Shown piece after piece: positions 15,143-15,268 of a stretch of DNA of 64,000 nt (position 1 is the first letter of the stretch; every line of letters starts with the position of its first letter). Both the position numbers and the translations under genes were made by a program. The DNA lies in sequence record OR896157.1; one strand, written 5' to 3'. The notes beneath the pieces were generated by a model that was not told the origin of the DNA, did not search any database, and saw only the letters and a list, made by a program, of their open reading frames with translations. Origin of the DNA: a phage.

Positions 15143-15268
15143 TGTTCAGACAGGACTCGAACCTGTAAGCATGTTCTTGCGGCGTTTTACCACCGTCGTC
15201 AGCATATGATTCAATATGCGAACTCAAAAGGTGTTGGACCCCTTGTCTACCAATTCCAGCACTGAACA
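15143..15268 (-). ncRNA. tRNA-like stable RNA (resembles T4 small stable RNA species C/D)
   Basis: 7-bp acceptor uguucag/cugaaca and T-arm acagg-UUCGAGU-ccugu enclosing about 90 nt of non-tRNA sequence; no ORF. Confidence 0.4.

Follow-up and report, generated by a model that had tools for sequence, protein, structure and literature searches.

A gene with an arm in place of the anticodon loop

We analysed a 64-kb stretch of phage DNA (record OR896157.1, 64,000 nucleotides, hereafter the window), which belongs to a Karamvirus. Its minus strand carries, at positions 15143–15268, a tRNA-like RNA gene for which X is used here as a working name. Comparison with its relatives established, at the sequence level, that X is a conserved, structurally constrained RNA gene derived from a tRNA-Leu, in which a structured arm replaces the anticodon loop. 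Over X, the window matches Klebsiella phage vB_KpnM_VPA32 with 100% identity and Enterobacter phage PG7 with 99–100%. An earlier reading of the window, the original prediction, had placed a 126-nt element here, and R1, a covariance model that we built from the family, returned exactly the same ends, with a score of 128 bits. The extent of the gene is given by this match, by the orthologues and by the comparative structure.

A perfect 7-bp acceptor stem, a canonical T arm, the absence of an open reading frame (ORF) and a place directly upstream of tRNA-Arg had also been claimed, and each was confirmed. The 5′ strand of the acceptor stem, UGUUCAG (15262–15268, RNA positions 1–7), pairs at all seven positions with the 3′ strand CUGAACA (15143–15149). 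The T arm, ACAGG-UUCGAGU-CCUGU, lies at 15150–15166. No ORF of at least 50 aa is found at X on its own strand, and the gap to tRNA-Arg(UCU), called at 15061–15138 (minus strand) by both ARAGORN and Rfam, is 4 nt long. This spacer, CACU (15139–15142), has the discriminator position as its first base, and CCA is not encoded. The claim that the inner 90 nt or so form neither a D arm nor an anticodon arm had to be abandoned: a class-II D arm, a covarying 4–5-bp equivalent of the anticodon stem and a short variable arm are present.

Read on the minus strand, the first half of X is UGUUCAG UG CUG GAAUUGGUAGA CAA GGGGU CCAA CACC UUUUGAGUUC GCAUAU UGAAUC, and the second half is AUAUGC UGACGAC GGUG GUAAA ACGCC GCAAGAACAUGCUU ACAGG UUCGAGU CCUGU CUGAACA. 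After U8 and G9, comparative alignment places a D arm of class-II (tRNA-Leu) type (CUG / GAAUUGGUAGA / CAA, 15243–15259), with a 3-bp stem and an 11-nt loop bearing A14, A15, G18G19 and A21. No change is seen at its pairs 11-25 and 12-24. At 10-26, 9 of 16 sequences have G-C or A-U, and the Karamvirus copies and most Jiaodavirus copies are mismatched. The D stem was scored as 2–3 bp. The equivalent of the anticodon stem is formed by GGGGU (15238–15242) and ACGCC (15181–15185); it was predicted by RNAalifold on a structure-blind MAFFT alignment. The short variable arm, GCA-AGAACA-UGC followed by UU (GCAAGAACAUGCUU, 15167–15180), ends in U48, the partner of A15. Both A15 and U48 are kept in every clade, and G53-C61 and the UUCGAGU T loop are present. 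Judged from these elements, X is a complete class-II, tRNA-Leu-like cloverleaf body minus its anticodon loop.

In the window, the 7-nt anticodon loop is replaced by a 52-nt insertion (15186–15237), delimited by comparative alignment. It consists, in order, of a 5′ junction (J5′, CCAA), the helix P2b (CACC/GGUG), an internal loop (UUUUGAGUUC / UGACGAC), a distal hairpin (GCAUAU-UGAAUC-AUAUGC, 15202–15219) and a 3′ junction (J3′, GUAAA). Throughout the X family the insertion measures 49–52 nt in every clade, with a 4-nt 5′ junction and a 5-nt 3′ junction (GUAAA, GGAAA or GUAAC), and its architecture is that of a 4-bp P2b, an asymmetric purine-rich internal loop and a 5–7-bp hairpin. The internal loop comes in two forms. 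One, with UUGAG opposite CGA (Karamvirus, Jiaodavirus and PM2), could accommodate tandem sheared G.A pairs that follow a U-rich bulge. The other, with UUGAAAC opposite UGAGUA (Marfa-like phages, CHI14 and EcS1), holds a GAA/AGUA signature that may correspond to a loop-E or bulged-G motif.

Orthologues and covariation of the helices

A BLAST search with the 126-nt X sequence retrieved 146 phage records at 79–100% identity (95–100% for Karamvirus, about 82% for Jiaodavirus). Divergent copies were reached by pattern scans of IMG/VR and metagenomes, and via the neighbouring gp30.3-like protein. They were found in Marfa-like phages, in Serratia phage CHI14 (Winklervirus), in Escherichia phage EcS1 (Kanagawavirus) and in Pectobacterium phage PM2. 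In these copies, sequence likeness is limited to the tRNA-like ends and the interior differs, the overall length still being 123–127 nt. X is thus borne by at least six lineages (Karam-, Jiaoda-, Marfa-, Winkler- and Kanagawavirus, and Pectobacterium phage PM2), whose hosts are Klebsiella, Enterobacter, Serratia/Erwinia, E. coli and Pectobacterium. The distribution is patchy, as several phages with a gp30.3 about 80% identical have no X. In the GenBank records listed as matches, X is mostly left without annotation; a "hypothetical protein" overlaps it in some, and it is labelled tRNA-Phe in OP558005. No Rfam family, database annotation or paper describing X was found, in a literature coverage that was incomplete and leaves an earlier description possible.

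The structure was examined on two alignments. The first was a structure-blind MAFFT alignment of 15 distinct sequences, folded with RNAalifold. The second contained 16 sequences, PM2 included, aligned to R1, and it leans towards the R1 structure. A manual segment-by-segment alignment, in which pairing was verified by script, served as a third check. The sample amounts to six lineages with few independent events per pair, and the cells reported below count sequences, not events. On the MAFFT alignment, RNAalifold recovered the acceptor stem, the 5-bp stem at the anticodon position, the 4-bp P2b, a 2–3-bp variable arm and the T arm, and 10 pairs in this prediction had changed on both sides. When the full X structure was counted on the same alignment, 95.8% of the cells were paired, versus 83.0 +/− 1.2 for column shuffles (0 of 500 as high) and 31–43% for controls in which the 3′ partner was moved by 1–3 columns. 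On the R1 alignment, 21 of 35 pairs showed changes on both sides, and all seven helices (7/7) were supported. The proportion of paired cells was 92.8% across the 16 orthologues of the family, versus 32–42% in slid controls.

Compensated changes are found from one end of the molecule to the other. All four pairs of P2b change on both sides between clades (CACC/GGUG, GCUU/AGGC, CUCU/AGAG and CUUC/GAAG). Three of the five T-stem pairs do so, the 5′ strand being ACAGG, GCAGG, GGAGG, GUGGG or AUGGG, and this stem is 100% paired. The anticodon-stem equivalent covaries in the register GGGGU/ACGCC, GGUGA/UCGCU and ACCGG/CCGGU, with pair types GC/CG/UA and GC/AU/UA, and the variable-arm pairs of alignment A5 are GC at 90-104 and CG, AU or GC at 91-103. 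The distal hairpin has its own sequence in each clade and is paired in all of them. Within single clades, too, it shows compensatory changes: GCAUAU/AUAUGC versus GCGUAU/AUACGC in L014 and L004, and CCUGG/CCAGG versus CCCGA/UCGGG in Marfa-like phages. For the acceptor stem, the first 15 sequences had suggested an invariant sequence, but this was an ascertainment effect of the search patterns: PM2, which was reached via the neighbouring protein, has AUUUCUA/UAGAAAU, a difference that is fully compensated and that adds four pairs changed on both sides. In the manual alignment, all helices pair in all clades despite their differing sequences. With 146 phage records and covariation of all helices, X is far beyond chance.

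The copy in "Aeromonas phage PS49" (PP212877) is 96.8% identical, which is typical of Enterobacter Karamviruses. A scan of bacterial genomes for X yielded only one metagenome-bin contig, with a distant relative. Putative relatives of X are carried by an environmental contig, L048, and by a "Bacteroidetes MAG" contig, L049. The relative is 103–104 nt long, scores 56–59 bits and has the same D arm with a shorter insertion. Both contigs also hold a second, different tRNA-like RNA of 118 nt. All these elements lie at 766–868 and 1151–1268 in L048 and at 660–763, 842–959 and 1898–2001 in L049, and ARAGORN reported no tRNAs close to them. L049 has two copies of the 104-nt element, separated by 1238 nt. 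A degenerate X-like element without G18G19 (30.7 bits) lies on viral contig L177 at 396–518.

Relation to tRNA-Leu and to the stable RNAs of T4

The best matches of R1 outside the family were mostly tRNA-Leu genes (55.2, 52.2, 45.3 and 44.8 bits), most other tRNAs scoring about 29 bits or less. In the D-arm region, 18 of 20 positions of the window copy agree with the KpV477 phage tRNA-Leu(UAA). These two observations point to the descent of X from a phage tRNA-Leu, most likely a class-II tRNA-Leu(UAA). With such a tRNA, X shares the 7-bp acceptor stem, U8, the 3-bp D stem with its 11-nt loop (A14, A15, G18G19, A21), the A15-U48 pair, the 5-bp anticodon stem, a stem-loop variable arm and the UUCGAGU T arm. 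It is unlike tRNA-Leu in its 49–52-nt arm at the place of the anticodon loop, in the lack of a conserved anticodon, in its shorter variable arm, in the lack of an encoded CCA, in a discriminator that is not a fixed A73, and in scores below the Rfam and ARAGORN thresholds.

Several hallmarks of tRNAs in general are thus found in X. The 7-bp acceptor stem and the 5-bp T stem with its 7-nt loop both covary, and the D arm is accompanied by the universal tertiary nucleotides U8, A14, G18G19, A21, 15-48 and G53-C61. A 7-nt anticodon loop with U33 and a conserved anticodon is absent, 49–52 nt standing in its place, and since it has no anticodon loop X cannot read a codon. In agreement with the original prediction, no confident conventional tRNA call was made at X. 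ARAGORN in default mode reported no gene in any of 16 X-family sequences. The Rfam tRNA family (RF00005) did not match the window copy, whether at its gathering score or at E ≤ 10, and four other clades likewise had no match at E ≤ 0.05. The isotypes that ARAGORN proposed in intron mode were inconsistent from one copy to the next.

The 3′ end also sets X apart from its neighbours. An encoded CCA follows all 19 tRNAs detected by Rfam in the window (14807–20151), mostly as CCAAAT or CCAAT, and CCA is encoded in none of the 16 X homologues examined (15 orthologues and the outlier L048). The only T-arm-bearing genes of the window without CCA are X and the rnaC orthologue described below. A host enzyme may still add CCA to X. 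Karamvirus has C as the discriminator; the orthologues as a whole use A, C, G or U, with variation even within Jiaodavirus. A73 is an identity element for the leucyl-tRNA synthetase of E. coli, so that this freedom argues against conserved leucylation.

Small stable tRNA-like RNAs, species 1 and 2, have been known in T4-type phages since the 1970s. They are encoded by rnaC and rnaD, respectively, and their functions are still unknown (PMC3014915, PMC12685909). The original prediction had read X as the gene of a tRNA-like RNA that bears a large internal insertion, neither a conventional tRNA nor protein-coding, akin in kind to the T4 stable RNAs, and this part stands. It had also likened the place of X, upstream of tRNA-Arg, to that of the T4 C/D species, and this part falls. 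The T4 order on the transcribed strand is tRNA-Ile, segB, tRNA-Arg, rnaD, rnaC, so that the T4 RNAs lie downstream of tRNA-Arg and X lies upstream. With its filters off, R1 scored 13.6 bits on T4 rnaC, coming only from generic T arm and acceptor pairing, and 0.3 bits on T4 rnaD, effectively no match; a search of the T4 tRNA region with R1 found no X.

A genuine rnaC orthologue exists elsewhere in the window, at 17978–18116 (minus strand), wedged between tRNA-Trp and tRNA-Gly. It is 79% identical to T4 rnaC over all 139 nt (E = 5e-30), with compensated changes in the T stem and the acceptor-like stem. Homologues of rnaC also occur in EcS1, which bears X too, and in 32 Enterobacter-phage records. 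A BLAST search of the window with rnaD gave nothing below E = 1e-3, the best short matches having E of about 2.9. X does resemble rnaC in its similar size, in its tRNA-like T arm and acceptor, and in adjoining tRNA-Arg in a tRNA cluster. Orthology with rnaC or rnaD is nevertheless next to impossible, given the generic or negligible R1 scores, the absence of X from the T4 tRNA region, the reversed order relative to tRNA-Arg, and the coexistence of X with a separate true rnaC orthologue both in the window and in EcS1; for rnaC, the orthologue at 17978–18116 refutes it. X and rnaC are different genes, alike in kind and not in descent. Both lie inside the tRNA cluster of a T4-like phage, co-oriented with the tRNAs and without CCA; T4 rnaC, too, is about 130 nt long, its tRNA-type T arm and acceptor-like stem enclosing a large structured interior. 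It differs from X in lacking a G18G19 D arm and in its place in the cluster, and it shows no detectable homology to X.

The rnaC orthologue of the window has two further features. It keeps both alternative acceptor pairings seen when it is compared with T4, the 3′ strand CGUUCCG being able to pair with an outer CGGUUCG or an inner CGGAACG. ARAGORN calls its 3′ 95 nt (17977–18071) "tRNA-Met(cat)", a place where the Rfam tRNA family is silent. In a scan of the minus strand for T-arm motifs, the T arm of this orthologue was therefore covered by a tRNA miscall; outside the ARAGORN and Rfam tRNA calls, the scan returned only X and one weak AT-rich match at 57342–57358.

Other RNA classes were compared with X. 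The tRNA-like domain of transfer-messenger RNA (tmRNA) similarly has an acceptor and a T arm joined to a long irregular helix at the place of the anticodon arm, and no anticodon. X differs from it in having U3-A70, not the alanine identity pair G3.U70, in its real D stem, and in its 126 nt without pseudoknots or a conserved tag frame. A tmRNA-like tag was rejected, as the sole AUG frame has 19 codons in the window and 8 in Jiaodavirus and is absent from Marfa-like copies. ARAGORN made no tmRNA call on X, and the Rfam tmRNA family matched only a 17-nt T-arm fragment in one orthologue. Among 4227 Rfam families, searched at gathering and permissive thresholds, nothing was found on X other than a YrlA match (RF02553). 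This match, of 23.5 bits for a gathering score of 69, is an artefact of neighbouring tRNA-like pieces, as it runs from the 3′ part of X into the 5′ part of tRNA-Arg. YrlA, a bacterial Y-RNA-like RNA, does share with X a tRNA-like module made up of a T arm and a D arm; its topology is different, its ends lying in a long stem. A base-pairing small RNA with a conserved seed is unlikely, since the distal loop differs by clade (UGAAUC, UGCAUC, UUGGUAC, UUUAAGCAC). A hammerhead-like core was dismissed on inspection: CUGACGA is present in X, but there is no three-way junction.

Genomic setting and possible role

The tRNA genes of the region all lie on the minus strand, and in every case X heads a co-oriented tRNA sub-cluster. 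The order is X-Arg-Cys-Leu-Thr in the window, X-Leu-Arg in KpV477, X-Cys...Arg-Leu-Thr in EcS1, X-Arg-Leu-Thr in Mineola, Marfa and ValerieMcCarty03, and X-Arg-Leu in CHI14; in PM2, a tRNA-Gly follows 63 nt after X. On the other side, X starts 6–12 nt past the stop codon of a co-oriented ORF, and a gene of the gp30.3 family (PF08010) lies immediately or one gene upstream. In the window this protein is encoded at 15507–15956 (minus strand; PF08010, E = 1.4e-59), one gene upstream of X. The adjacency of gp30.3 and X is kept in Jiaodavirus and PM2, a small ORF coming between them in Karamvirus. At the gp30.3 place of Marfa there are ORFs of similar size, known by size only.

The AT-rich region upstream of X (15269–15305) overlaps the end of a 74-aa ORF and, read by eye, contains a putative promoter-like TGGTTTA ... 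TAATAA. MotA-box-like and −10-like motifs were also seen by eye just upstream of X in Marfa, CHI14 and Jiaodavirus, PM2 being inconsistent. A scan for sigma-70 promoters and terminators found nothing next to X. A dedicated promoter, for which these motifs are a weak lead, and co-transcription with the upstream genes are equally possible.

We propose that X is a genuine conserved non-coding RNA gene, whose product would be a non-decoding tRNA mimic, derived from tRNA-Leu(UAA) and acting in trans; we give this reading a probability of about 0.6. X would be transcribed together with the tRNA sub-cluster that it heads. Since its acceptor, T and D architecture is intact, it should be open to cleavage by RNase P, trimming of the 3′ end, addition of CCA and modification of the T loop. 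RNase P would cut at the 5′ side of X and at the 5′ side of tRNA-Arg, leaving a 4-nt trailer, after which X might be trimmed and given CCA by a host enzyme. From this expected maturation, X is probably released as a stable RNA of about 126–130 nt, and in this form it would accumulate. The tRNA-like half might then engage a protein that reads the elbow or the acceptor region of tRNAs. Candidate partners would be a tRNA-handling enzyme, or a defence or toxin enzyme of the host that is directed at tRNAs. The added arm could act as a second, family-specific binding surface, or could block ribosomal use.

Several points weigh against this proposal. A trans-acting role is suggested weakly, by the anatomy of the RNA only. 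The neighbours of X, a gp30.3-family protein and PHROG families of unknown function, are uninformative as to a partner. The comparative fold has an energy of about −20 kcal/mol as drawn and −30.3 with its pairs enforced, and the minimum free energy is −38.2, for a different fold; the z-score of the whole-sequence fold is only −1.96. Such a gap between the two folds is common enough for tRNAs, and because of it the structure of X rests on the comparative evidence. Finally, the Karamvirus copy has an imperfect D stem (C10.A26) and a G.G mismatch in the anticodon-stem equivalent.

These imperfect D and anticodon stems of the window copy, together with the degenerate-looking relative in L177 (30.7 bits), would be consistent with X as a decaying tRNA-Leu pseudogene, broken by an insertion and without function. 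This is very improbable, as the same architecture and length (123–127 nt) recur in six lineages, nearly every helix shows compensatory substitutions, those of the insertion included, and the universal tertiary nucleotides have been kept. The tRNA-Phe label of OP558005 implies another reading, in which X is a functional tRNA gene whose anticodon loop is split by a small intron of a new kind, cut out and then ligated by phage tRNA-repair enzymes; this too is improbable, if a little less so. The insertion does occupy the expected place, J3′ is G-UAA-A in four clades, recalling the Leu anticodon UAA, and ARAGORN in intron mode returns on the window copy the same tRNA-Phe(AAA) as OP558005, with a 47-nt intron. 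Across the orthologues, however, the calls of this mode scatter over Phe, Ala, Thr, Tyr, Pro, Ser and Leu, nine anticodons and shifting intron positions, and we therefore regard the GenBank label as an artefact; annotation pipelines should not label X a tRNA. The stem register used by this mode in the window (GGGGU/GCCGC) is unpaired in Jiaodavirus, the covarying register leaves junctions of 4 and 5 nt instead of a 7-nt loop, and the supposed anticodon is not conserved (GUAAA, GGAAA, GUAAC). To our knowledge, group I is the only intron type of bacterial and phage tRNA genes, and an insertion of 47–52 nt is far below its size. A group I intron, with its P1–P9 core of over about 200 nt, was rejected: the insertion is 49–52 nt long, no Rfam intron family matches, and its removal restores no conserved loop. 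Moreover, the window already holds tRNA-Phe(GAA) and tRNA-Leu(UAA), as called by ARAGORN, and X lacks the CCA found after 19 of 19 tRNAs.

A more serious alternative, which we nonetheless consider doubtful, is that X acts in cis, as a processing and stability module. It would be a punctuation mark between the mRNA of the gp30.3-like operon and the tRNA sub-cluster, recruiting RNase P and protecting ends, with no function once released. The constant location of X fits this, always between co-oriented upstream coding sequences and the first tRNA of the sub-cluster and 6–12 nt past a stop codon, and so do the lack of CCA and the free discriminator base. The distant relatives in L048 likewise lie between coding sequences, with no tRNAs nearby. 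Yet an ordinary tRNA of the cluster would serve equally as punctuation, and such a role leaves unexplained both the retained tertiary nucleotides of the D and T loops and an arm of about 50 nt with covarying helices and conserved purine-rich loops across six lineages.

Within the reading of X as a mimic acting in trans, a bolder version can be put forward as a tentative and rather unlikely one. X would be the founding member of a class of anticodon-less tRNA mimics of phages, directed in trans at a protein able to recognise the tRNA body, with the arm as specificity module and rnaC as a second, independently evolved example. Under this version, X may possibly neutralise a host tRNA-directed immune effector or toxin, through the acceptor end or elbow, or capture a tRNA-handling enzyme. 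The subject is topical, given the many defence systems that target tRNAs. X adds a second family to the tRNA-like RNAs of T4-type phages, unrelated to species 1 and 2 and with a clear tRNA-Leu origin. Its tRNA body and grafted arm are separable, which offers a handle for genetics and pull-downs on anticodon-less tRNA mimics during infection.

Over-long tRNA-like genes were also met on other viral contigs, and insertion-bearing tRNA-like genes may be common in phages. Those of L039, L040 and L093, along with the elements of L048 and L049, hint that the phenomenon could extend beyond the X family. Two such genes are at L040:3805–3918 and L039:4129–4242. The kinds observed among over-long genes include a tRNA-Tyr(GUA)-like gene whose D loop is larger by about 30 nt, and a 114-nt class-I-type gene that carries its insertion past the position of the anticodon stem. 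On the minus strand of L093 lies a 125-nt tRNA-Leu-like gene with an inserted hairpin. In the window itself, some tRNAs have unusual lengths. A tRNA of 85 nt, a class-II length, at 20067–20151 (minus strand; Rfam, 39.1 bits) was missed by ARAGORN. tRNA-Cys is normally class I; the tRNA-Cys(GCA) at 14972–15056 (minus strand) is 85 nt long with a stem-loop variable arm, and the tRNA-Asn at 19700–19784 is likewise 85 nt long.

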